Sequence record: SRR31156797_15625
DNA length: 39,068 nt
Reading direction: 5' to 3' (one strand)
This document shows, in pieces, positions 7,807-38,803 of the stretch (positions are counted from its first letter, which is position 1; each line of letters starts with the position of its first letter). The notes under the pieces were generated by a model that had not been told where the DNA came from, made no database searches, and saw only the letters and a program-made list of their open reading frames with translations. The translations under genes and the position numbers were made by a program.

Positions 7807-7821
7807 TAGAATTATCCTTAT

Positions 7822-7844
7822 AAAAAAACCTCCCATTGGGAGGC
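7822..7844 (-). terminator. pheA attenuator terminator
   Basis: GCCTCCC-AAT-GGGAGG-TTTTTTT on the minus strand between leader peptide and pheA. Confidence 0.88.
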
Positions 7845-7893
7845 TTTCTGTTCGTTTTTGACTTTTCTTTCTTAAACGACTGAGCCTCCAAAA

Positions 7894-7941
7894 TTATTGG
7901 AGAAAAAAGAAGTCAAAAAAGAACATTTGTGTATTGGTCAT
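7894..7941 (-). CDS. pheL: pheA leader peptide MTNTQMFFFDFFFLQ
   Basis: 15-codon ORF with six Phe codons, followed by the attenuator hairpin. Confidence 0.9.
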   Translation of the reverse strand: MTNTQMFFFDFFFLQ

Positions 7942-29954: not shown

Positions 29955-29999
29955 TACTTAACGTTAATGTTTATCTCAGTTGAGGTTAGGAAGGTTGTT

Positions 30000-32573
30000 A
30001 TGCGTCTCGACAGATTTACCAGTAAATTCCAGATAGCAATTTCTGACGCCCAGTCACTCGCACTCGGGCGAGATCATCAATATATTGAACCTGTGCACTT
30101 GATGGTTGCGCTGCTTGATCAAAACGGCAGCCCAATTCGTCCACTGCTAACCATGCTTGACGTAGATGTCATGCAGCTTCGTTCCAAATTGGGCGAGACG
30201 CTTGATCGTCTACCAAAAGTGAGCGGGATTGGTGGTGATGTACAGCTTTCCAGTGCTTTAGGTACTTTGTTCAACCTGTGTGACAAAGTGGCTCAAAAGC
30301 GTCAAGACTCTTATATATCTTCTGAAATTTATCTTTTAGCGGCGATTGAAGATCGTGGTCCGCTAGGTCAAATCCTTAAAGAGTTTGGTCTGAATGAAAA
30401 GAAAGTCTCAGACGCTATTGAGAAGATCCGTGGTGGTCAGAAAGTCAATAACCCGAACGCGGAAGAACTTCGTCAGGCTTTAGAAAAATTTACTATCGAT
30501 CTTACTGAACGAGCAGAGCAGGGGAAGCTTGATCCTGTTATCGGTCGTGATGATGAGATCCGTAGAACGATCCAGGTATTGCAACGTCGTACTAAAAACA
30601 ATCCGGTGATCATTGGAGAACCGGGCGTAGGTAAAACGGCGATTGTTGAAGGTTTAGCACAGCGTATTATCAATAACGAAGTGCCAGAAGGACTTCGTGG
30701 ACGTCGCGTACTCTCTTTAGATATGGGTGCGTTAGTTGCGGGAGCGAAATACCGTGGTGAGTTTGAAGAACGTTTGAAATCGGTACTGAATGAGTTGGCC
30801 AAAGAAGAAGGTAACATCATTCTGTTTATCGATGAGCTTCATACTATGGTGGGTGCAGGTAAAGGCGAAGGCTCAATGGATGCCGGTAACATGCTGAAAC
30901 CTGCTCTTGCTCGTGGTGAGCTTCACTGTGTCGGTGCGACCACGCTCGACGAATACCGTCAGTACATTGAGAAAGATCCGGCCCTTGAACGCCGCTTCCA
31001 AAAAGTACTGGTGGATGAGCCAAGCGTTGAAGATACCATTGCGATTCTGCGTGGGTTGAAAGAGCGTTACGAACTTCACCACCATGTGGAAATTACTGAC
31101 CCTGCGATTGTATCGGCGGCGACTTTGTCTCACCGATATGTTTCGGATCGCCAGTTACCCGATAAAGCGATCGATCTGATAGATGAAGCAGCATCCAGTA
31201 TTCGTATCCAAATCGATTCCAAACCAGAAGAGTTGGATCGACTAGAACGTCGCATTATTCAGCTGAAGATCGAACAGCAAGCATTATCTAAAGAGCACGA
31301 TGAAGCGAGTGAAAAGCGCTTAAAAATTCTCAACGAAGATCTTGGTGAGAAAGAGCGCGAATATGCAGAGCTGGAAGAGGTTTGGAAAACGGAAAAAGCA
31401 GCGTTGTCTGGTACACAACATATTAAAGCCGAGCTTGATCAAGCTCGGATGGATATGGATGTTGCACGACGTGCTGGCGACTTAAACCGTATGTCAGAAC
31501 TGCAATATGGTCGAATTCCTGAGTTGGAGAAACAACTCGATTTGGCTGCACAGGCAGAAATGCAGGAAATGACACTGCTACGTAATAAAGTGACGGATAC
31601 TGAAATTGCCGAAGTTCTTTCTAAGCAAACCGGTATTCCTGTCTCTAAAATGCTTGAAGCAGAGAAAGAGAAGCTGCTTCGCATGGAAGATGTGCTGCAT
31701 AAACGCGTTATCGGTCAGGTAGAAGCGGTTGAAGTGGTATCCAATGCAATTCGCCGTAGCCGTGCCGGATTATCTGATCCAAACAAACCGATTGGCTCAT
31801 TCCTATTCTTAGGTCCAACTGGTGTCGGTAAAACCGAACTTTGTAAAACACTGGCGCACTTTATGTTTGATAGTGAAGATGCCATGGTGCGTATCGATAT
31901 GTCAGAGTTTATGGAGAAACACTCTGTGGCCCGTCTGGTCGGTGCGCCTCCAGGTTATGTCGGTTATGAAGAAGGCGGTTATTTAACAGAAGCGGTTCGT
32001 CGTAAACCTTATTCCGTAATCTTGCTTGATGAGGTTGAGAAAGCGCATCCGGATGTGTTCAACATCTTGCTCCAAGTTCTGGATGATGGTCGTTTAACGG
32101 ATGGTCAGGGTCGTACTGTTGATTTCCGTAATACGGTAGTCATCATGACGTCGAACTTAGGTTCAGCCAGTATTCAGGAAAACTTCGCGTCTTTGGATTA
32201 TCAAGGTATCAAAGAGCGAGTGATGGAAACGGTAAGTAAGCACTTCCGTCCAGAGTTCCTGAACCGTGTTGATGAAAGTGTCGTCTTCCATCCGCTTGGC
32301 AGAGAACACATCAAGTCGATTGCTTCTATTCAGCTGGAACGTCTACATAAACGTCTGGCTGATAAAGAGTACGACCTTGAAGTGAGCGAGGATGCACTGG
32401 ACTTGATAGCTCAGGTTGGTTTTGATCCGGTTTATGGTGCTCGTCCGTTGAAACGTGCTATTCAGCAAAATATTGAGAACCCTTTGGCGAAGTCAATTTT
32501 GTCAGGTCAGTTCTTACCCGGAAAACCTATAAGTCTGGGTGTTCGGGACGGCAATATCATCGCCAGCCAATAA
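30000..32573 (+). CDS. clpB: ATP-dependent disaggregase ClpB (857 aa)
   Basis: MRLDRFT start; two AAA+ modules ([16 protein letters not shown]) with a coiled-coil middle domain. Confidence 0.97.
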
Positions 32574-32660: not shown

Positions 32661-33644
32661 TTAAGAGAAGTTCGCGTTTATACGCATTTTCAAATAATCC
32701 TGCGCAGTAATTGGTTCGTAAACTTTCTTTGGTCCTTGGATAATCTGATCACGGTTAGCCTGACAGAAGAACGCCATGCTGTAGCGTGAATCTTGATTTT
32801 CCTCTGGAGTAGGCATACGTACACGGTGCAGCGTTGATTTCAATAAATCATCACTCCAACGCATTAACATATCACCGATATTACAACTGATAACGCCAGC
32901 TTTCGGTTCTACTGCGCTCCAAACCAAATTTTCTTTCGCATCTTTACCGGCTGCCGCTTGCAAGCCACCTTGGTTTTCCTGCTGGAATACCATGGTCAGA
33001 CAGTCAAAGTCTGTATGAGCGCCAGCACGCCAGAATTTACCTTCAGCCGGCACCTCTTTCATCGGCAAGTAGTGCAGCATACGTAAAGTGCTCAGATAGT
33101 TTTCTGATTCTCTGTCGTGCGCTTTAGTAAAGAAGTCGCGTTCAAAGCCAAGTTTGTCAGCAAAGCATGACAGGATTTTCATGCCTAGCTTCCAAGCCTG
33201 ATGTTCGAATGAGCGTAGATGGGATTCATAGTCTTCAACCTGTTCATTACTTGGCCATAAATCTTCCATGTGTGGCAAGGTAATTTGGTAAGACTCTTTT
33301 TGATCTGCGGTACCTGTGGAAGGACGAACTTGTTGTTTAAACTCCCAACCAGCATTTAAGCCTTCTTTTAAAGGAAACTGCTCTTTTACTTCTTTTGGTA
33401 GAGAAAAGAATTCTTCGCTCAGCTTAAAGGATTTTTCAATATCAGCTAAAGAAATACCGTGGTCAACTAACTGGAAAAAGCCTACTTGAGTTGCTGCTTC
33501 CCACAGTTGTTCAGTGATTTCTTCGCGTCGGTTATCGAAATCGTTCAAGTTGATCATTGGGATCACGGTATCGTTGGCTTCTAAACCTTGTCCACCAATG
33601 GTTGTTTCAAAGTTAAGTTCGTCTAAAAGGTATGATTGAGTCAT
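32661..33644 (-). CDS. Isopenicillin-N-synthase-family 2OG-Fe(II) oxygenase
   Basis: IPMINL..GFFQLVDHGI N-domain; HTD...H triad (AHTDFD, STLHRV); RYS motif; ATG 33644 follows GGAG. Confidence 0.9.
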   Translation of the reverse strand: MTQSYLLDELNFETTIGGQGLEANDTVIPMINLNDFDNRREEITEQLWEAATQVGFFQLVDHGISLADIEKSFKLSEEFFSLPKEVKEQFPLKEGLNAGWEFKQQVRPSTGTADQKESYQITLPHMEDLWPSNEQVEDYESHLRSFEHQAWKLGMKILSCFADKLGFERDFFTKAHDRESENYLSTLRMLHYLPMKEVPAEGKFWRAGAHTDFDCLTMVFQQENQGGLQAAAGKDAKENLVWSAVEPKAGVISCNIGDMLMRWSDDLLKSTLHRVRMPTPEENQDSRYSMAFFCQANRDQIIQGPKKVYEPITAQDYLKMRINANFS

Positions 33645-33677
33645 TGTTTTTCTCCAATTAAGCAATTGCTTGTTATT

Positions 33678-33739
33678 GGAGCAATGTCCAGCAATAGCTC
33701 AAGAATCCAATCCTTGGTATTACAGACCGCTTCTACTCC
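33678..33739 (-). ncRNA. Xanthine-I (NMT1 motif) riboswitch aptamer, copy 1, before the oxygenase
   Basis: GGAGUAGAAGCGGUC-[extended hairpin]-GGACAUUGCUCC; P1 GGAGUA/UGCUCC. Confidence 0.85.
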
Positions 33740-33788
33740 GTGCTTTTACTCTTTATTTGAGTAAATCTAAACTTTTAAGATGAAGTTG

Positions 33789-34265
33789 CTACCACACTCC
33801 GTGTTGTACTTTCTCTGCCTCGTCTTCAAGTAAGGGGCCGATGACTTCAACGTCGCGCTGGCCTGATTCAAAAACTGTGCGGCATGGCAGTGCAAGAGTG
33901 GGGTTCTCTGGGTGATTACCGGTTAGCTCTTTAAGTTTCGCTTCGCTTAGTCCGTAAACTATTCGTCCTACGCCCGCCCAGTAGATGGCGCCGGCACACA
34001 TTGCACAAGGTTCTGCTGAAATGTACAAGGTGCATCGATTAAGAAAGTCGGGGCGAAACATCTTACTCGCGCGTGTCATAATTAGGCGTTCAGCATGCCC
34101 CGTCATATCGAGATCCGGCAAGTATCCGTTAATTTGTTCCAGTAACACTTCACCGTGTTCATCAACCAGTACAGCTGAGAAAGGGTGAATACCGTTGGTT
34201 TTGGCCTCTTCCGCTAGGGCAAATGTGTAGCGCAACAGTTTAAAATCAGTTTGTTCATTCAGCAT
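33789..34265 (-). CDS. Cytidine-deaminase-fold nucleoside/nucleobase deaminase (guanine deaminase-like)
   Basis: HAE and EPCAMC zinc motifs; AIYWAG. Confidence 0.85.
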   Translation of the reverse strand: MLNEQTDFKLLRYTFALAEEAKTNGIHPFSAVLVDEHGEVLLEQINGYLPDLDMTGHAERLIMTRASKMFRPDFLNRCTLYISAEPCAMCAGAIYWAGVGRIVYGLSEAKLKELTGNHPENPTLALPCRTVFESGQRDVEVIGPLLEDEAEKVQHGVW

Positions 34266-34274
34266 TGAGCGTTC

Positions 34275-35057
34275 CTACCTTTGTTTTTCTTCTTCTGTCA
34301 GGCTCCAAGAGAAGAACCCTTTTTGTACCCAGTTCACCGATTTAAATAGCAACATACTGACTAACGATAAGAAAACCAGTGCTGCAAAGGCTTGTGGAAT
34401 TTTGAAATAGGACGTTGAGAACTGAACTAAGTATCCAAGGCCTTTTTCTGCCGCGACGAACTCAGCAATAACCGAGCCGATAACCGCTAAAGTAATCGCC
34501 ACTTTTACGCCACTGAAAATATGAGGGATCGCATACGGAAGGCGTATTTGCCAAATTGTTTTACTGTTTTTCACACTCAGTGAGCGTGATAGTTCAATCA
34601 GCTCTGGTGGTGTCGCTAACATCCCCGTTGTTGCAGAAACCACAAGTGGAAAGAAGGTAATTAGGCACGTGATAGTGAGGCGTGGTGCATCACCGGTCCC
34701 CAAAATCACAATAAGTAGAGGAGCGATCGCTACAACGGGAGTGGACTGGATAATCACAAGAATCGGGAACAAGGCTTTAGTCAAAAATTTTGAGTTAACC
34801 ATCATGATTGCTAAAGGAATACTGATCATAAAAGAGATAGCAAACCCAAGTAGCGCGATTCGTAATGTTGCCCATAGATTATCTAACCAACGTTCCATTG
34901 AAACCTGACTGAATGCTAAAGCAATATCACTCGGTGCTGGCAGGATAAATGTTGGAACAGAAAAGGCACGGCAAATTGCTTCCCAAATAGGGATGATGGC
35001 TAATATCGCTAGCAAAGGTAGCCAATTCTGTGAAAGTTTAGAAAAATACTGTTTCAT
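34275..35057 (-). CDS. NitT/TauT-family ABC transporter permease
   Basis: ILPAPSDI, TPVVAIAPL, IAEFVAAEKGLG; ATG 35057 follows AAGGA (ORF open to 35075). Confidence 0.9.
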   Translation of the reverse strand: MKQYFSKLSQNWLPLLAILAIIPIWEAICRAFSVPTFILPAPSDIALAFSQVSMERWLDNLWATLRIALLGFAISFMISIPLAIMMVNSKFLTKALFPILVIIQSTPVVAIAPLLIVILGTGDAPRLTITCLITFFPLVVSATTGMLATPPELIELSRSLSVKNSKTIWQIRLPYAIPHIFSGVKVAITLAVIGSVIAEFVAAEKGLGYLVQFSTSYFKIPQAFAALVFLSLVSMLLFKSVNWVQKGFFSWSLTEEEKQR

Positions 35058-35081
35058 ATCTATTCCTTTAGACACTTTTCA

Positions 35082-35909
35082 TTAAGCGACCGTTTTACGG
35101 ATAGGCTCAACGTTGTCCTGATCTTTGCTTTCTGGATCACTACTTTTTTCTGAACGATAGAAGTATTCGCGAATCTTATTGGTGTAAGAACCGAACTTAG
35201 GATCCTGCAATGTATGAATATCTCTTGGACGAGGTAAATCCACTTTGATTTCCTCCAGTACCGTACTTGGGCGTGGGCCCATAACCAGTACTTTGTCTGC
35301 AAGTAACACCGCTTCTGAGATTGAGTGAGTAATGAATAGAACCGTCTTAGGCTTTTCCATCCAGATTTTCTGCAGCTCAAACCCCATTTCTTCACGGGTT
35401 AATGCGTCTAATGCTGAGAAAGGTTCATCCATGATCAAAATATCTGGATTCAGTAACAGAGCGCGAGCGATACCCACCCGTTGCTGCATACCGCCAGATA
35501 GCAGATCCGGCATACTGCTTTCAAAGCCCGCTAAACCGACCATATCAAGCAGCTTTCTTGCGTTATTTTGTTCTTTCTTACTTACATAGTTGAACTTGTG
35601 TTTAAGAGGGAACAGCACATTGTCCAGGATATTTTTCCAGGGAAGCAGTGTTGGTTTTTGAAAAACAATGCCGATATCTTCACGTGGACCAGTAACTGGG
35701 TGACCAAAAACCGAAATCTCACCCTGAGTCGGTGTAATTAACCCTGACAGTAGGCGCAGCAAGGTAGACTTGCCGCAACCTGAAGGACCAACGATGGCGA
35801 CGAACTCATGCTTTTCAACATTGAAGTCGACATCGTTGAGAACCGTAACCGAATGTTTGTCAGAGTTATAGGTATGACCTATACGCTTGAACGAAACAAA
35901 TGGTTGCAT
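35082..35909 (-). CDS. NitT/TauT-family ABC transporter ATPase
   Basis: GPSGCGKS, LLPW, LSGGMQQR, MDEPFSALD, ITHS. Confidence 0.93.
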   Translation of the reverse strand: MQPFVSFKRIGHTYNSDKHSVTVLNDVDFNVEKHEFVAIVGPSGCGKSTLLRLLSGLITPTQGEISVFGHPVTGPREDIGIVFQKPTLLPWKNILDNVLFPLKHKFNYVSKKEQNNARKLLDMVGLAGFESSMPDLLSGGMQQRVGIARALLLNPDILIMDEPFSALDALTREEMGFELQKIWMEKPKTVLFITHSISEAVLLADKVLVMGPRPSTVLEEIKVDLPRPRDIHTLQDPKFGSYTNKIREYFYRSEKSSDPESKDQDNVEPIRKTVA

Positions 35910-36910
35910 TAGTTCACTCCCTGGAAGAACTGACGATCAACCGCAGTTTCTGGGTCGAGTTTGTTGATATCTAGACCTTGAGCTTCTGCTGTCCATTTCC
36001 ACGTTTCGTTTAGACGAGATGGAGTGAAGCTACCCACACCGTCGCGTTTAGACACTTCGTTTAGAACTAAGCCGTGAATAGATTTAATTGTGTCGCTTGC
36101 TTGAGCTGAATCCACTTCTGGAACCATTTTTGTTACATCTGCGCCACTTTCTTCTGGGTGAGCCCAAGTGTATTCAACCGCTTTTGCGTAAGCTTTTACA
36201 AAGCGCTTAACGATATCTGGATTTTCAGACATGAACTTATCGCTTGCGATAATCGATGATGAATAGAACTCTAGGCCAGCATCGTACCAAGGTAGAACGT
36301 TAAGTTTTTTACCCGCTTGCGCAGCTTGCTGTTCGTTCTTAACGCGGTCTGTCATCCATGAGATCATGACATCAGACTGACCGGTAATTAGCATAGGGTT
36401 TAGAGCACCTGGATCTGCTTTAAGAACCTTTACGTCTTTCTCATCAACGCCGTTTTTCTTAAGCATCAGAGGAAGGAATACGTTTGCTGAAGTAAACGGA
36501 GAGGTAACAACTGTTTTGCCTGATACGTCTTCTACAGAATCGATACCTGAATCGTTTAATACATAAAAAGCATAAGGTGCTTTACTGAAAAGAGAGTAGA
36601 TAGCCTTTACAGGCACATTGTCATTTGCTTTTGCGACTAATAGTGCAACGATATCTGCAGAGCCAATATCCGCTGTACCAGTGGCGATTTTTGTAATAGC
36701 GTCTGTCGAACCTTTACCGCCAAGAATAGTGACATCTAAGTCTTCATCAGCGAAAAATCCTTGTTGTACGCCGACATAAACAGGAGCTTTATCACCGCCT
36801 GGTAACCAGTCAAGCTGGAAAGTGACTTTATCAGCGGCAAAGCTACTTGCAGATGCACAAAGCATAGATAGTGCTAGGCTGAGTTTGTTGAATTTAGAAA
36901 TAGTTTTCAT
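35909..36910 (-). CDS. NMT1/THI5-like ABC substrate-binding protein
   Basis: Signal peptide, VTFQLDWLP..APVYVG..GFFADEDLDV, YSSSII; ATG 36910 follows GGAG (ORF open to GTG 36934). Confidence 0.88.
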   Translation of the reverse strand: MKTISKFNKLSLALSMLCASASSFAADKVTFQLDWLPGGDKAPVYVGVQQGFFADEDLDVTILGGKGSTDAITKIATGTADIGSADIVALLVAKANDNVPVKAIYSLFSKAPYAFYVLNDSGIDSVEDVSGKTVVTSPFTSANVFLPLMLKKNGVDEKDVKVLKADPGALNPMLITGQSDVMISWMTDRVKNEQQAAQAGKKLNVLPWYDAGLEFYSSSIIASDKFMSENPDIVKRFVKAYAKAVEYTWAHPEESGADVTKMVPEVDSAQASDTIKSIHGLVLNEVSKRDGVGSFTPSRLNETWKWTAEAQGLDINKLDPETAVDRQFFQGVN

Positions 36911-36977
36911 AGTTACTCCGTGTCTTCCTTTCACTGAAAAGTGCTGTCTATGTTGACGGCATCTTTTACGCTAACTA

Positions 36978-37024
36978 TGAGCAATGTCCCGATACCTGAC
37001 TTAGTACCTAACCGCTTCTACTCA
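36978..37024 (-). ncRNA. Xanthine-I (NMT1 motif) riboswitch aptamer, copy 2, before the ABC operon
   Basis: UGAGUAGAAGCGGUUA-GGUAC/GUAUC hairpin-GGGACAUUGCUCA. Confidence 0.85.
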
Positions 37025-37044
37025 CATTTCCTGATTATGAGTAG

Positions 37045-37060
37045 AGCAAAGCTTGTGCCA
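37045..37060 (-). promoter_or_regulatory. Sigma54 -24/-12 promoter for the ABC operon
   Basis: TGGCAC-AAGCT-TTGCT on the minus strand; predicted start about 37034, just before aptamer copy 2. Confidence 0.8.
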
Positions 37061-37148
37061 TAAAATTAAAATTGTTGAAACTATCATTAACTACTGACTA
37101 ACGAACTGTTAACACAAAAGGGTTCGCTTAAATAATGAAACCGATCTT

Positions 37149-37160
37149 TTTGTATACAAA
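37149..37160. promoter_or_regulatory. GntR/FadR-type operator palindrome
   Basis: Perfect palindrome TTTGTATACAAA; second copy at 37300. Confidence 0.5.
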
Positions 37161-37195
37161 TAAAAGCGGAATATTGACTGGGTGTCGTATGTAAA

Positions 37196-37232
37196 TGCAC
37201 CTTTGTAATGCATTTCACACCAAATTGGTTCA
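37196..37232. promoter_or_regulatory. Tandem NtrC-like enhancer sites
   Basis: TGCACCTTTGTAATGCA (37196-37212) and CACACCAAATTGGTTCA (37216-37232) vs TGCACCA-N3-TGGTGCA. Confidence 0.65.
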
Positions 37233-37283
37233 ATCTAGTTCGATTAGTAGTGAGGGTAAGCTATAGGAGTAAGGGGTTTCTGA

Positions 37284-37299
37284 TGGTCTGTAATTTGCA
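37284..37299 (+). promoter_or_regulatory. Sigma54 -24/-12 promoter for the amidohydrolase
   Basis: TGGTCT-GTAAT-TTGCA with exact GG-N10-GC spacing; predicted start about 37310. Confidence 0.6.
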
Positions 37300-37309
37300 T
37301 TGTATACAG
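37300..37309. promoter_or_regulatory. Second GntR/FadR-type operator abutting the -12 element
   Basis: TTGTATACAG, 9/10 identical to the 37150 site. Confidence 0.45.
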
Positions 37310-37342
37310 AAATGATCATCAAACTGTTTGATGATATGTAAG

Positions 37343-37387
37343 TGAGTAGAAGCGGTTAGGAGTAAAGGGACTCTGGGACATTGCTCA
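37343..37387 (+). ncRNA. Xanthine-I (NMT1 motif) riboswitch aptamer, copy 3, before the amidohydrolase
   Basis: UGAGUAGAAGCGGUUA-GGAGU/ACUCU hairpin-GGGACAUUGCUCA. Confidence 0.85.
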
Positions 37388-37435
37388 ATGGTTAGCAGAT
37401 CGGCTGTAAGGCTGTTGATGTAAAGGGAAGTCTCA

Positions 37436-38803
37436 ATGAATTATATAATAAAAAATGCCAACGGAATTTTCTGTGCACAGCAAGATGCAAAAGATATTCG
37501 AGTACACAATGGCGTTATTAAAGAGCTAGGGAAAGAGCTAGTTCCTTTTCAGGGGGAAGAAGTCATTGATGCCAGCAACTGCGTTGTCTACCCCGGCTTT
37601 GTGAATACACATCATCATATTGCACAATCCATCTTGAAAGGTATTCCAGCAGGCATTAATGATGGACTCGGAGATTGGTTGGCAAGTGTACCTTATCGCT
37701 ACTGGCCTCAAATCACGCCTGAAATTATGTATTCAGCTGCAAAACTCGGTTTCTACGAGCTGTTGCGTTCCGGCGCAACGACTTGCGCAGATCATCATTA
37801 TTTGTATCACGCTAACTCAACACAAGAGTTAGAGGATGCGGTATGGCAAGCTGCTGATGAGATGGGTATACGTATAGTCCTTTGTCGGGGCGGCGCAACG
37901 GTAAAAGGAACGCATAAAGGTTTAGCGAAAGCAGGCGTAGAACCTGAATCGGCAGAGATGATGATTGAGCGTTTGGAAAGTACCCGTAGTCGTTATCATC
38001 AAGAAGGTGCGATGGCGATGCGTAAGCTGGTGGTCGCTCCTACAACTATTGCTCACTCATCGACGCCAAGTGACCTGCGACTGTTATCTGAATACGCAAG
38101 AAGTCAAAAGCTAAGAATGCATTCACATATGCTGGAAGTTGATTTCGATAATGAACAGTCTTTAGCAAAATATGGAAAAGGGATTGTTGAGTTCGCAGAA
38201 AGTTGTGGCTGGCTAGGTGAAGACGTTTGGTTTGCACATTTGGTTAAAGCGACAGAACAAGACGTTAAGCTACTAGCGGAAACAAAAACCGGTATTGCTC
38301 ACTGTCCAACATCCAATTGTCGATTGGGTAGTGGTATTGCACCTGTCATTAACATGGCTAAAGCTGGAATGCCGATATCTATCGGTGTAGACGGTTCCGC
38401 TTCTGCTGAATCAGGTTCAATGCTTCAAGAGCTGAATCTGACTTGGTTATTACACAGAACTCAACATGGGCCTAAAGCTACGACGTTAGAACAAGTATTA
38501 GAGTGGGGGACTAAAGGTGGTGCTGAGATGTTAGGTCTTGAAAGTGTCGGAACAATAAAAGAAGGTTTCGCGGCAGACTTCGTTTTATACGATATTAATC
38601 AGCCACGCTTATCCGGTTGCCATGATACTTTGATGTCACCGCTAATGGCCGGAGAGCCTTCTTATATTAAGGCGAGTTTTGTTAACGGTAAAATTGTGTA
38701 TCGACATAGTGAAGAAGACCAATATCAGTATTTAGTCTCTGAAGTGCGTGAAGCAATCACAAAACTGAATAAGCGAGTTTCAGCTTTAGAAGCTAGAAGC
38801 TAG
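37436..38803 (+). CDS. Metal-dependent amidohydrolase, isoxanthopterin/8-oxoguanine-deaminase-like
   Basis: VNTHHHIAQSILKG, RGGAT, VVAPTT, RMHSH..E, VWFAHLVK, HCPTSNCRLGSG, GVDGSAS. Confidence 0.85.
   Translation: MNYIIKNANGIFCAQQDAKDIRVHNGVIKELGKELVPFQGEEVIDASNCVVYPGFVNTHHHIAQSILKGIPAGINDGLGDWLASVPYRYWPQITPEIMYSAAKLGFYELLRSGATTCADHHYLYHANSTQELEDAVWQAADEMGIRIVLCRGGATVKGTHKGLAKAGVEPESAEMMIERLESTRSRYHQEGAMAMRKLVVAPTTIAHSSTPSDLRLLSEYARSQKLRMHSHMLEVDFDNEQSLAKYGKGIVEFAESCGWLGEDVWFAHLVKATEQDVKLLAETKTGIAHCPTSNCRLGSGIAPVINMAKAGMPISIGVDGSASAESGSMLQELNLTWLLHRTQHGPKATTLEQVLEWGTKGGAEMLGLESVGTIKEGFAADFVLYDINQPRLSGCHDTLMSPLMAGEPSYIKASFVNGKIVYRHSEEDQYQYLVSEVREAITKLNKRVSALEARS

Follow-up and report, generated by a model that had tools for sequence, protein, structure and literature searches.

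Three xanthine-I riboswitch aptamers in a purine uptake and modification gene cluster: predicted translational control and putative ON polarity

Gene organization of the locus

The window analysed here is a stretch of 39,068 nucleotides from sequence record SRR31156797_15625. Its host is a Vibrio, and the cluster combines purine-uptake with purine-modifying genes; the products are an ABC importer, an oxygenase, and two deaminases, the latter a small CDA-fold enzyme and a PRK12393 amidohydrolase. A 455-aa amidohydrolase of the PRK12393 family is encoded at 37436-38803 (+; NCBIfam NF009059, 595 bits against a cut-off of 543), and its best solved relatives are, in order, 2paj (4e-105), 3hpa, and 7ww2 (8-oxoguanine deaminase). 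Divergent from it runs the gene for an NMT1/THI5-like periplasmic binding protein (35909-36910, -; Pfam PF09084, 3e-47), with ATG at 36910-36908 and GGAG at 36919-36916; this start was set by an MKTISK N-terminus conserved in relatives. The ABC ATPase gene (35082-35909, -; PF00005) has a start codon that overlaps the preceding stop by 1 nt, the ABC permease gene (34275-35075, -; PF00528) follows the ATPase stop after 6 nt, and 9 nt past the permease stop lies the gene for a small zinc deaminase of the CDA/TadA/guanine-deaminase fold (33789-34265, -; PF00383, 3e-19), whose PDB relatives include 8wlw and 5xko (~1e-20) and guanine deaminase 1wkq (4e-13). With this overlap and these short gaps, the transporter and small deaminase genes are packed for translational coupling. 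The last gene encodes a 327-aa 2-oxoglutarate/Fe(II) oxygenase (32661-33644, -; PF14226, DIOX_N, and PF03171, 2OG-FeII_Oxy), closest among solved structures to thymine dioxygenase 5c3p (4e-25). This gene starts 144 nt beyond the deaminase stop, with a separate Shine-Dalgarno sequence and a separate aptamer.

Identification of three xanthine-I aptamers

A search of the window with all 4227 Rfam families gave three full-length matches (model positions 1-56) to the Rfam Xanthine model RF03054, at 47.8, 45.2, and 42.4 bits (E 1e-7 to 3e-6 against 4227 families) and a gathering score of 36 bits. Aptamer A (37339-37391, +; 47.8 bits, E 1e-7) lies 5' of the amidohydrolase gene, with P1 formed by 37343-37348 and 37382-37387. 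Aptamer S (37028-36974, -; 45.2 bits; P1 37024-37019 with 36983-36978) lies 5' of the ABC operon. Aptamer O, which has a long P2b (33743-33674, -; 42.4 bits; P1 33739-33734 with 33683-33678), lies between the deaminase and oxygenase genes, 45 nt past the deaminase stop. From the end of the match to the start codon there are 44 nt for the amidohydrolase, 63 nt for the binding protein, and 29 nt for the oxygenase. All three contain the exact core pattern GAGTAGAAGCGGT-N15-45-GGACATTGCTC, which occurs exactly three times in the window, at 33679-33738(-), 36979-37023(-), and 37344-37386(+), and 0 times in 100 dinucleotide-preserving shuffles of the window; the intervals assigned by the sequence-only reading add the P1 closing pair on either side of this core. 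That reading had placed three copies of the motif here, each sense to and 5' of a gene, one of them intercistronic, and had named an Infernal search with the Rfam NMT1 model as the check. The pattern count and the RF03054 matches bear out the three copies, all of which exceed the gathering score, and their orientation and the intercistronic position are as it described.

Junction letters GAGUAGAAGCGG ... GGACAUUGCUC are common to the three copies, and the central hairpins, as had been noticed, differ in sequence while all being paired in the RF03054 alignments. In an alignment of 31 Vibrio aptamers, 95.0% of 423 cells paired, versus 81.1% in shuffles, and the covariation score was 0.399 versus 0.162 in shuffles, a value reached by 0 of 500. 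Both sides changed in 7 of the 14 pairs, and helix partners slid out of register paired in only 27-50%, so that the rod-like P1/P2a/P2b hairpin has covariation support in this set. The ligand pocket described in the accessible part of Xu et al. (2021) comprises G7-A8-A9-G10 in J1, the long-range C11:G35 pair, A39, U40, A6-U41, and the U5-G42 wobble in P1. These nucleotides, as far as that source gives them, were found in all three window copies, and the pocket columns are invariant among the 31 Vibrio aptamers.

The covariation claimed for the P1 closing pair is present: the oxygenase copy has G-C where the remaining copies have U-A, and the 31 Vibrio aptamers have U-A in 17, G-C in 10, G-U in 1, and no pair in 3. 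The related claim of a compensatory U-A to G-C change holds against the crystallised Ideonella construct (Xu et al., 2021, as available) and fails as a peculiarity of this locus; G-C matches the RF03054 consensus letters and is therefore the common form. Because model score, helix covariation, ligand-contacting nucleotides, and gene context agree, membership in the xanthine-I (NMT1) class, as first proposed, is upheld, and judged by their sequences we are nearly certain that the three elements are xanthine-I riboswitch aptamers.

Conservation of the layout in related loci

The nearest genome available for comparison contains the same three copies. Within the genus, 10 of 61 sampled genomes had a match, and 9 of these 10 had three. 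We also scanned 80 oxygenase-encoding loci with a model (R1) built in this analysis. Each of the 166 matches preceded a gene in sense orientation, and that gene was a homologue of the oxygenase (68), the binding-protein (55), or the amidohydrolase gene (43). Three aptamers were found in 35 of the 80 loci, two in 23, one in 15, and none in 7, and a transporter aptamer stood upstream of an oxygenase aptamer on one strand in 46. For this gene cluster, several aptamers per locus are the norm, and the arrangement in the window is not unusual. The rule in the cluster is clear: one aptamer per independent translation start, with one copy internal to the operon. The transporter and deaminase genes are coupled, the oxygenase gene has a separate Shine-Dalgarno sequence, and the amidohydrolase gene is divergent; thus, there is a sensor for every independent site of ribosome entry.

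Transcription signals

A scan of the window found no terminator-like site 3' of any aptamer. Since the leaders lack terminators, translation is the indicated level of control, as in the xanthine-I class, and we hold it very probable that the window copies act there. A consensus scan found a promoter-like site, ATGGCA-16 nt-CATAAT (37034-37061, -; 9 of 12 matches), in a scan whose number of sites was not above shuffle expectation; transcription of the operon from this site would begin roughly at the first nucleotide of aptamer S. Between the deaminase gene and aptamer O, no terminator-like or promoter-like consensus site was found, and from this and the spacing we infer that aptamer O would be co-transcribed with the upstream operon. 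A single mRNA carrying aptamers S and O is plausible, because the operon is tight, consensus signals are absent before aptamer O, and the same layout occurs in 46 of 80 related loci.

Predicted pairing of the aptamers with the ribosome-binding sites

Each window leader shows complementarity between the 3' half of its aptamer and the Shine-Dalgarno or start region, and the minimum-energy folds lack P1 and pair these two segments instead. In the leader of aptamer A, GGGAC (37375-37379, +) pairs with GUCUC (37430-37434), which lies between the Shine-Dalgarno sequence and the AUG; this pairing is kept in the closest relatives only. In the leader of aptamer S, UCAUAGUUA (36972-36980, -), overlapping the last 3 nt of P1, forms a 9-bp helix in the minimum-energy fold with the complementary UAACUAUGA (36915-36907, -), which contains the start codon of the binding-protein gene. 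Both 9-mers are identical in the 7 listed main-clade relatives, and the spacer between them varies. In the leader of aptamer O, an anti-Shine-Dalgarno CUCCAAU (33675-33681, -), which begins with the four nucleotides that end the P1 3' strand, pairs with AUUGGAG (33658-33652) in both the minimum-energy and the centroid fold. Because the aptamer 3' half is the only strong partner of the Shine-Dalgarno/start region, P1 and sequestration of the ribosome site are mutually exclusive in these models.

Forcing P1 to form cost 1.2-1.5 kcal/mol of ensemble energy in the window leaders and raised the mean unpaired probability from Shine-Dalgarno to AUG from 0.31-0.46 to 0.59-0.67. Among 153 distinct leaders treated alike, the site opened by at least 0.10 in 78, closed in 8, and stayed within 0.10 in 67. 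Shuffling the linker alone reduced the effect from 0.175 to 0.042 in oxygenase leaders (real larger in 48 of 56), from 0.111 to 0.021 in binding-protein leaders (20 of 23), and from 0.132 to 0.070 in amidohydrolase leaders (21 of 38). These comparisons, like those below, involve related, not independent, sequences, and the nearest-neighbour folding behind them ignores tertiary stabilisation of the ligand-free aptamer.

The oxygenase leaders gave a further comparison. The CUCC:GGAG core forms a standard pair at each position in 56 of 56, with three pairs invariant and the fourth C-G in 54 and U-G in 2, and the flanking pairs change on both sides (the sixth is A-U in 25 and U-A in 10). Over this helix, 83.3% of cells pair, versus 77.1% in shuffles, a level reached by 0 of 500. 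Cognate anti-Shine-Dalgarno/Shine-Dalgarno duplexes were more stable than permuted ones: for the oxygenase the values were -9.23 versus -7.91 kcal/mol, and 0 of 5000 permutations were as good; 36 of 5000 were as good for the binding protein and 20 of 5000 for the amidohydrolase. The window amidohydrolase copy has a poor simple duplex of this kind (-3.7 kcal/mol; rank 32 of 38), and z-scores of the leader folds are weak (-0.88 for the binding-protein and -0.60 for the amidohydrolase leader).

We propose that each aptamer governs translation initiation of the adjoining downstream reading frame. When ligand is absent, the aptamer 3' half would mask the Shine-Dalgarno or start-codon region by pairing with it; once xanthine or urate bound, P1 would be stabilised, the masking strand withdrawn, and the ribosome site opened. 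The operon-internal copy would exist because uncoupled sites of ribosome entry each require a dedicated sensor. Because formation of P1 would free the ribosome site, the design is that of an ON switch, and on these modelled folds we lean modestly toward ON for the window copies, our confidence being held at that level because the only published reporter assay, on a representative from another species, read OFF.

Discussion

The window contains a described riboswitch class in a typical gene context and no new kind of system. The accessible accounts of xanthine-I (NMT1 motif, RF03054; Weinberg, 2017; Yu & Breaker, 2020; Xu et al., 2021) give the same P1, J1, P2a, J2, P2b, and junction letters; compared with them, the window aptamers show no difference, and the associated gene classes and the proteobacterial host are alike. 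All four gene classes of the window cluster are on the association list in the available text of Yu & Breaker (2020), which has NMT1/tauA, pcbC/DIOX_N dioxygenase, PRK12393, and tadA-like genes. For a Serratia representative, dissociation constants of ~3.7 uM (xanthine) and ~25 uM (urate) have been published. Adjoining divergent copies in Hydrogenophaga intermedia are also, from what is available of the literature, already published. Class, ligand, structure, and every gene association found here are thus on record. An operon-internal aptamer, as in the window, is not mentioned in the accessible text of Yu & Breaker (2020). The complementarity between the aptamer 3' half and the ribosome site is the one point beyond published work.

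Like the window, the loci described as tandem riboswitches have several same-class aptamers per gene cluster (Sherlock et al., 2022). The starts of the same-strand window aptamers are separated by 3285 nt and four genes, and these aptamers, each before its own frame, do not form such a tandem. Table 3 of that paper places xanthine-I with the classes for which no tandem was found; true tandem aptamers occur in four related loci outside the window.

The repeats could instead be sites in double-stranded DNA for a regulator protein, or copies of a dispersed repeat; two of them do share a divergent intergenic region, a usual location for operators. We consider this reading extremely improbable. The three window copies and all 166 matches in related loci are sense to a downstream gene, and the stems vary by compensatory changes around fixed loop and junction letters, which is the signature of an RNA structure. 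A better operator candidate is the separate pair of TGTATACA palindromes at 37151-37158 and 37301-37308, which lie in the divergent intergenic region at a spacing of 150 bp; the pair recurs at spacings of 138-151 bp in 12 of 29 related divergent regions, all 12 from Vibrio. That the fold is genuine and yet responds in the cell to another oxidised heterocycle, either urate or a product of the amidohydrolase (an oxidised pteridine or lumazine), is improbable to our mind. The class also binds urate and 8-azaxanthine, its cellular ligand was left open by the authors in the text available, the amidohydrolase is closer to 2paj than to 8-oxoguanine deaminase, and its gene class is related to isoxanthopterin deaminases (Weinberg et al., 2017). 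However, every pocket nucleotide matches the xanthine-bound crystal construct (Xu et al., 2021, accessible part), the published structure-activity series, as available, excludes methylated or bulkier analogues, and pteridine data for the class were not found in the accessible part of the published account.

The polarity of the window leaders, read here as ON, differs from the OFF reported by Yu & Breaker (2020). On that model, high xanthine or urate would shut off translation of the importer, both deaminases, and the oxygenase, preventing over-accumulation of oxidised purines. In the accessible text, an H. intermedia leader-lacZ fusion in E. coli, the sole experimental datum on polarity, was expressed below its binding-dead point mutant in both rich and minimal medium; the class was called a genetic OFF switch, and the regulated enzymes were argued to act upstream of xanthine and urate. 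The 8 modelled leaders whose site closes on forced P1 also fit. However, that reporter test, as described there, relied on a single representative of a different order in a heterologous host and included no ligand titration. The strong pairing partner lies in the aptamer itself in 3 of 3 window leaders, the linkers show no second anti-Shine-Dalgarno element such as an OFF design would require, and at ~20-60 nt the aptamers lie too far from the Shine-Dalgarno sequence to block it by simple steric hindrance. Xanthine-II riboswitches, guanine-I variants that also sense xanthine, are described as ON, with similar gene associations (dioxygenase, allantoinase, and xanthine dehydrogenase are named); they differ from the window copies in an entirely different fold, other bacteria, and terminator-based platforms (Hamal Dhakal et al., 2022). 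We therefore treat OFF polarity as a real but rather doubtful possibility.

Polarity belongs to the expression platform and not to the aptamer, and therefore has no bearing on class membership. For the putative ON switches proposed here, the resemblance lies in mechanism. The add adenine riboswitch of Vibrio vulnificus is a translational ON switch with a three-way junction purine aptamer. In it, the P1 3' strand and the following nucleotides form a repressor helix with the Shine-Dalgarno/start region, and ligand-stabilised P1 releases that helix, like the proposal for the window; its aptamer fold is unrelated and its ligand different, so that the likeness implies no membership.

Taken as a whole, the explanation by three functional xanthine-I copies, each governing translation of the next reading frame as a putative ON switch, is one in which we place good confidence. 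The main value of the finding is one of annotation, a described riboswitch class having been recognised correctly from raw sequence. Across the cluster, more than 100 gamma- and alpha-proteobacterial leaders look like ON designs, whereas the lone published reporter assay says OFF. That the xanthine-I riboswitches act as translational ON switches in this widespread importer/deaminase/oxygenase cluster, so that xanthine or urate would induce uptake and oxidation, is to us an evenly balanced proposition. Polarity decides between a xanthine-induced catabolic or scavenging route and a product-repressed cluster. If true, cluster-wide ON control would reverse both the OFF polarity currently assigned to the class and its 'avoid over-production' rationale.

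Three xanthine-I aptamers in a predicted purine-uptake gene cluster

The conserved core pattern GAGTAGAAGCGGT-N15-45-GGACATTGCTC matched the window at three sites [33679-33738(-), 36979-37023(-), and 37344-37386(+)] and matched none of 100 dinucleotide-preserving shuffles. When the whole window was scanned against all 4227 Rfam families, four matches exceeded gathering scores, and three of these were full-length matches to RF03054, 'Xanthine riboswitch aptamer (NMT1 RNA)' (cut-off 36 bits). These are aptamer A, 5' of an amidohydrolase gene (37339-37391, plus strand; 47.8 bits); aptamer S, 5' of the binding-protein ABC operon (37028-36974, minus strand; 45.2 bits); and aptamer O, between the deaminase and oxygenase genes (33743-33674, minus strand; 42.4 bits). 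The fourth match was a phenylalanine leader peptide attenuator (RF01859) at 7820-7939(-), which scored 83.5 bits. In the RF03054 alignments, the P2b hairpins differ in all three copies, yet each pairs, and P2b of aptamer O carries a long insertion. The P1 closing pair is G-C in aptamer O and U-A in aptamers A and S, and both pairs are common among 31 distinct Vibrio aptamers (U-A 17, G-C 10, G-U 1, unpaired 3).

The sequence-only reading had taken a repeated core, central hairpins that differ but pair, and a G-C versus U-A exchange at the P1 closing pair as signs of three NMT1/xanthine-I aptamers. Each of these observations was borne out, the observation as a whole was confirmed by the covariance-model scores, and the interpretation is supported. 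The reference sequence given in that reading agrees with the crystallised Ideonella construct in the available text of Xu et al. (2021). The U-A to G-C change that it noted at the first P2a pair is a real difference from this construct, but is not peculiar to the locus; G and C are the Rfam consensus letters at this pair, and the window copies therefore have the common form. All testable defining features of the xanthine-I class were found in the three elements, which are members of this class and ordinary in kind.

Aptamer S precedes five genes on the minus strand. The first encodes an NMT1/THI5-like periplasmic binding protein (Pfam PF09084), whose ATG at 36910 was fixed by an N-terminus conserved in relatives. 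It is followed by genes for an ABC ATPase, the start of which shares 1 base with the binding-protein stop; a permease, 6 nt after the ATPase (ORF list and Pfam); and, 9 nt beyond the permease, a zinc deaminase (158 aa) with the CDA/TadA/guanine-deaminase fold. Aptamer O begins 45 nt after the deaminase gene and ends 29 nt before the start of a gene for a 327-aa 2OG/Fe(II) oxygenase with DIOX_N and 2OG-FeII_Oxy domains (best solved relative, thymine dioxygenase, 4e-25), which bears out the intercistronic position claimed for this copy. On the plus strand, aptamer A precedes a gene for a 455-aa amidohydrolase (NCBIfam PRK12393, 595 bits against a cut-off of 543), whose best solved relatives are 2paj (4e-105), 3hpa, and the 8-oxoguanine deaminase 7ww2. 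These gene classes are exactly those associated with the NMT1 motif in the available text of Yu and Breaker (2020): NMT1, tauA, pcbC/DIOX_N dioxygenases, PRK12393 amidohydrolases, and tadA. That text also describes adjacent representatives in opposing orientations in H. intermedia, and the amidohydrolase class was already tied to isoxanthopterin deaminases in the corresponding part of Weinberg et al. (2017).

Two further features adjoin the oxygenase gene. The RNA just 5' of aptamer O [33744-33760(-); AGAGUAAAAGCAC] resembles the P1 5' strand and J1 of the aptamer (GGAGUAGAAGCGG) and looks like a partial duplicate of it. A ClpB chaperone gene at 29967-32573(+) is convergent with the oxygenase gene, with 87 nt between the stop codons.

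The three-aptamer arrangement in related genomes

The nearest genome compared, from which we read the genome-wide copy number in place of the window's own assembly, contains the same three aptamers within one 3.3-kb stretch and no others. Eleven of 101 relatives had a match; 10 of the 11 belong to the same genus (61 sampled), and nine of these 10 had three matches. An oxygenase-alignment search, limited to one genome per species, gave 80 named loci, including those of Vibrio sp. EA2 (protein 92% identical), V. plantisponsor, V. mytili, V. xiamenensis, and V. furnissii, and, outside Vibrio, those of Photobacterium, Thalassolituus, Marinobacter, Marinobacterium, Rhizobium, Inquilinus, and others. 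Searched with a covariance model of the 31 Vibrio aptamers, these loci gave 166 matches (E <= 0.01), with three in 35 loci, two in 23, one in 15, and none in 7. The sense, 5'-of-gene orientation noted for the window copies held for all three and for 166/166 matches, each lying 5' of an oxygenase (68), binding-protein (55), or amidohydrolase (43) homologue. All three types occurred together in 32 of the 80 loci, the amidohydrolase gene was divergent in 36, and the binding-protein aptamer lay upstream of the oxygenase aptamer on the same strand in 46, at a median spacing of 2.8 kb. The 35 loci with three aptamers and the conserved layout indicate that three aptamers are the norm for this gene cluster, which is conserved and has a patchy distribution.

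Two xanthine-I aptamers in series, within one leader before the oxygenase gene, were present in four of the related loci (numbered, with coordinates internal to each): L095:471-752 from a Tardiphaga MAG (57.2 and 50.8 bits), L049:5785-5975 from Thalassolituus sp. (44.7 and 36.9 bits), and L051 and L053:5750-5959 (46.3 bits and 34.1 or 34.8 bits, the second copy falling just under 36). In L049, a weak hairpin and six consecutive T lie 3' of the first aptamer. The tandem copies in L095 and L049, and those with a sub-threshold second copy in L051 and L053, differ from a 2022 review whose Table 3 counts xanthine-I with the classes for which no tandems were found (Sherlock et al., 2022).

Predicted helices between the P1 3' strand and ribosome-binding regions

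A consensus-type scan found no terminator-like site 3' of any window aptamer, which agrees with the translation-level action described for the class in the available text of Yu and Breaker (2020). In the oxygenase leader, CUCCAAU (33681-33675), which comprises the last four letters of P1 and three more, is exactly complementary to AUUGGAG (33658-33652), which contains the Shine-Dalgarno (SD) sequence. The resulting 7-bp helix, with a small hairpin inside it, appears in both the minimum-energy and centroid folds (z = -2.24), and P1 appears in neither. In the binding-protein leader, UCAUAGUUA (36980-36972), which has three letters in common with P1, pairs with a segment that includes the start codon, UAACUAUGA (36915-36907). 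The amidohydrolase leader is the weakest case in the window: the aptamer 3' half, from GGGAC onwards, pairs with GUCUC and with purine-rich sequence just before the AUG, with a duplex energy of -3.7 kcal/mol (rank 32 of 38) and a fold z of -0.60, and this pairing is kept in the closest relatives only.

The CUCC:GGAG core forms standard pairs in all 56 distinct oxygenase leaders, and of its four pairs only the fourth varies (C-G in 54, U-G in 2). Pairs beyond the core vary on both sides, giving helices such as CUCCAAU:AUUGGAG, CUCCAUUA:UAAUGGAG, CUCCAAAGAC:GUCUUGGAG, and CUCUGAUUA:UAAUCAGGAG. In the ungapped register, 83.3% of 432 cells pair compared to 77.1% after shuffling, none of 500 shuffles reached the observed pairing figure or covariation score, and pairing fell to 35-54% when the partners were slid out of register. 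We also compared the duplex of each leader's own P1-3'-plus-flank segment and own SD/start segment with permuted pairs (5000 permutations). Cognate duplexes were more stable for the oxygenase (-9.23 versus -7.91 kcal/mol; 0/5000 as good), binding-protein (-7.01 versus -6.40 kcal/mol; 36/5000), and amidohydrolase leaders (-7.26 versus -6.61 kcal/mol; 20/5000); the leaders are related sequences, and all of these statistics overstate their independence. A shortened oxygenase-type aptamer (GGAGUAGAAGCGGCAAAUC...GAUUGGCAUUGCUCC), with a reduced P2a/J2 region and the anti-SD/SD helix kept, occurs at L022:1502-1546 and L030:1502-1546 (31.2 and 30.5 bits in Rfam, against the cut-off of 36), L097/L099:5930-5974, and L076:5932-5976.

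Predicted effect of P1 on ribosome-site opening and polarity

We took the ribosome site as the AUG together with the 13 nt 5' of it and scored it by mean unpaired probability. Forcing the six P1 pairs, compared to blocking them, cost 1.2, 1.2, and 1.5 kcal/mol of ensemble free energy in the three window leaders. Forced P1 raised the unpaired probability from 0.31 to 0.59 for the binding protein, 0.45 to 0.63 for the oxygenase, and 0.46 to 0.67 for the amidohydrolase. With the published Kd for xanthine of ~3.7 uM (available text of Yu and Breaker, 2020), a few tens of micromolar xanthine would suffice for RT ln(1+[L]/Kd) to equal 1.2-1.5 kcal/mol, so that, in a rough model that ignores tertiary energy, the two leader states would be poised in a switchable range.

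Among 153 distinct leaders (of 166), forced P1 opened the site by at least 0.10 in 78, closed it in 8, and changed it by <0.10 in 67. When the linker alone was shuffled and the SD-to-AUG window was kept, opening fell from 0.175 to 0.042 for oxygenase leaders (real larger in 48 of 56), from 0.111 to 0.021 for binding-protein leaders (20 of 23), and from 0.132 to 0.070 for amidohydrolase leaders (21 of 38). Joining each core to the tail of another locus gave the same P1-dependent opening as cognate pairs; such a swap moves the covarying extension together with the tail and leaves an invariant UGCUC as the sole contribution of the core, so the control carries no information.

In these leaders, the P1 3' strand itself would be the anti-SD element. 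Ligand-stabilised P1 and the sequestering helix would then be mutually exclusive, and ligand would raise expression (ON). From these folding models, we lean towards ON control of the oxygenase and binding-protein copies, and somewhat less so for the amidohydrolase copy. This reading contradicts the published OFF label. In the available text of Yu and Breaker (2020), one H. intermedia leader-lacZ fusion was expressed in E. coli at a lower level in the wild type than in a mutant with one change in the conserved core, and the authors concluded that the riboswitch is OFF, 'likely by regulating translation initiation'; the lacZ-fusion section as available describes no ligand titration. Repression through an 'extended P1' or steric occlusion was set aside for the window copies, whose purine-rich 5' flanks lack complementarity to the SD regions and whose spacers are ~20-60 nt. 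In the literature, ON designs are reported for xanthine-II riboswitches, said to accompany similar genes, and for 8-oxoguanine riboswitches before 8-oxoguanine deaminase genes.

Aptamer number, transcription, and a candidate operator pair

Sequestration of an SD sequence would govern the adjacent reading frame only, and one aptamer per independent ribosome entry site would explain both the number and placement of the three copies. A gap of 144 nt separates the oxygenase start from the stop before it, and the opposite strand carries the amidohydrolase gene; the binding-protein, ATPase, permease, and deaminase genes appear to be spaced for translational coupling. This gene spacing, together with the 46 loci of the same layout, suggests that each independent entry site has its own aptamer.

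Aptamer O may lie on the operon mRNA. In a weak consensus scan, the stretch from the deaminase gene to aptamer O showed neither promoter-like nor terminator-like sites. Counts in the window did not stand above those in shuffles (promoter-like, 10 versus 8.0; terminator-like, 2 versus 4.2), so promoter assignments are weak. Two seawater RNA libraries, a run that may also be an RNA library, and another of unknown kind yielded contigs with scattered cover of the locus, including 37144-37404 (the amidohydrolase leader and aptamer) and the surroundings of 33743. These contigs are short and mostly 90-99% alike; since no starts, strand, or single transcript can be read from them and DNA may be present, they decide neither transcription nor co-transcription of aptamer O.

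The divergent intergenic region contains two TGTATACA palindromes (37151-37158 and 37301-37308), 150 bp apart, the first of which can be lengthened to TTTGTATACAAA. Of 29 divergent intergenic regions compared from related loci, 12, all from Vibrio, share this pair at a spacing of 138-151 bp. It is a candidate operator pair, through which a transcription factor could add to riboswitch control. A search for a regulator gene beside the amidohydrolase gene found no ORF of at least 80 aa in the 1.2 kb beyond it in one related locus (L035); the window's final 265 nt hold short ORFs only.

The ligand, structure, gene associations, and divergent pairs of this aptamer class are in print. An operon-internal copy as a rule and an ON-type platform are absent from the available text of Yu and Breaker (2020), whose figures and supplement may show either. 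The residual interest is the question of polarity. We speculate that ON and OFF action could both be true of this class, if short-spacer representatives occlude and long-spacer ones compete by strand.
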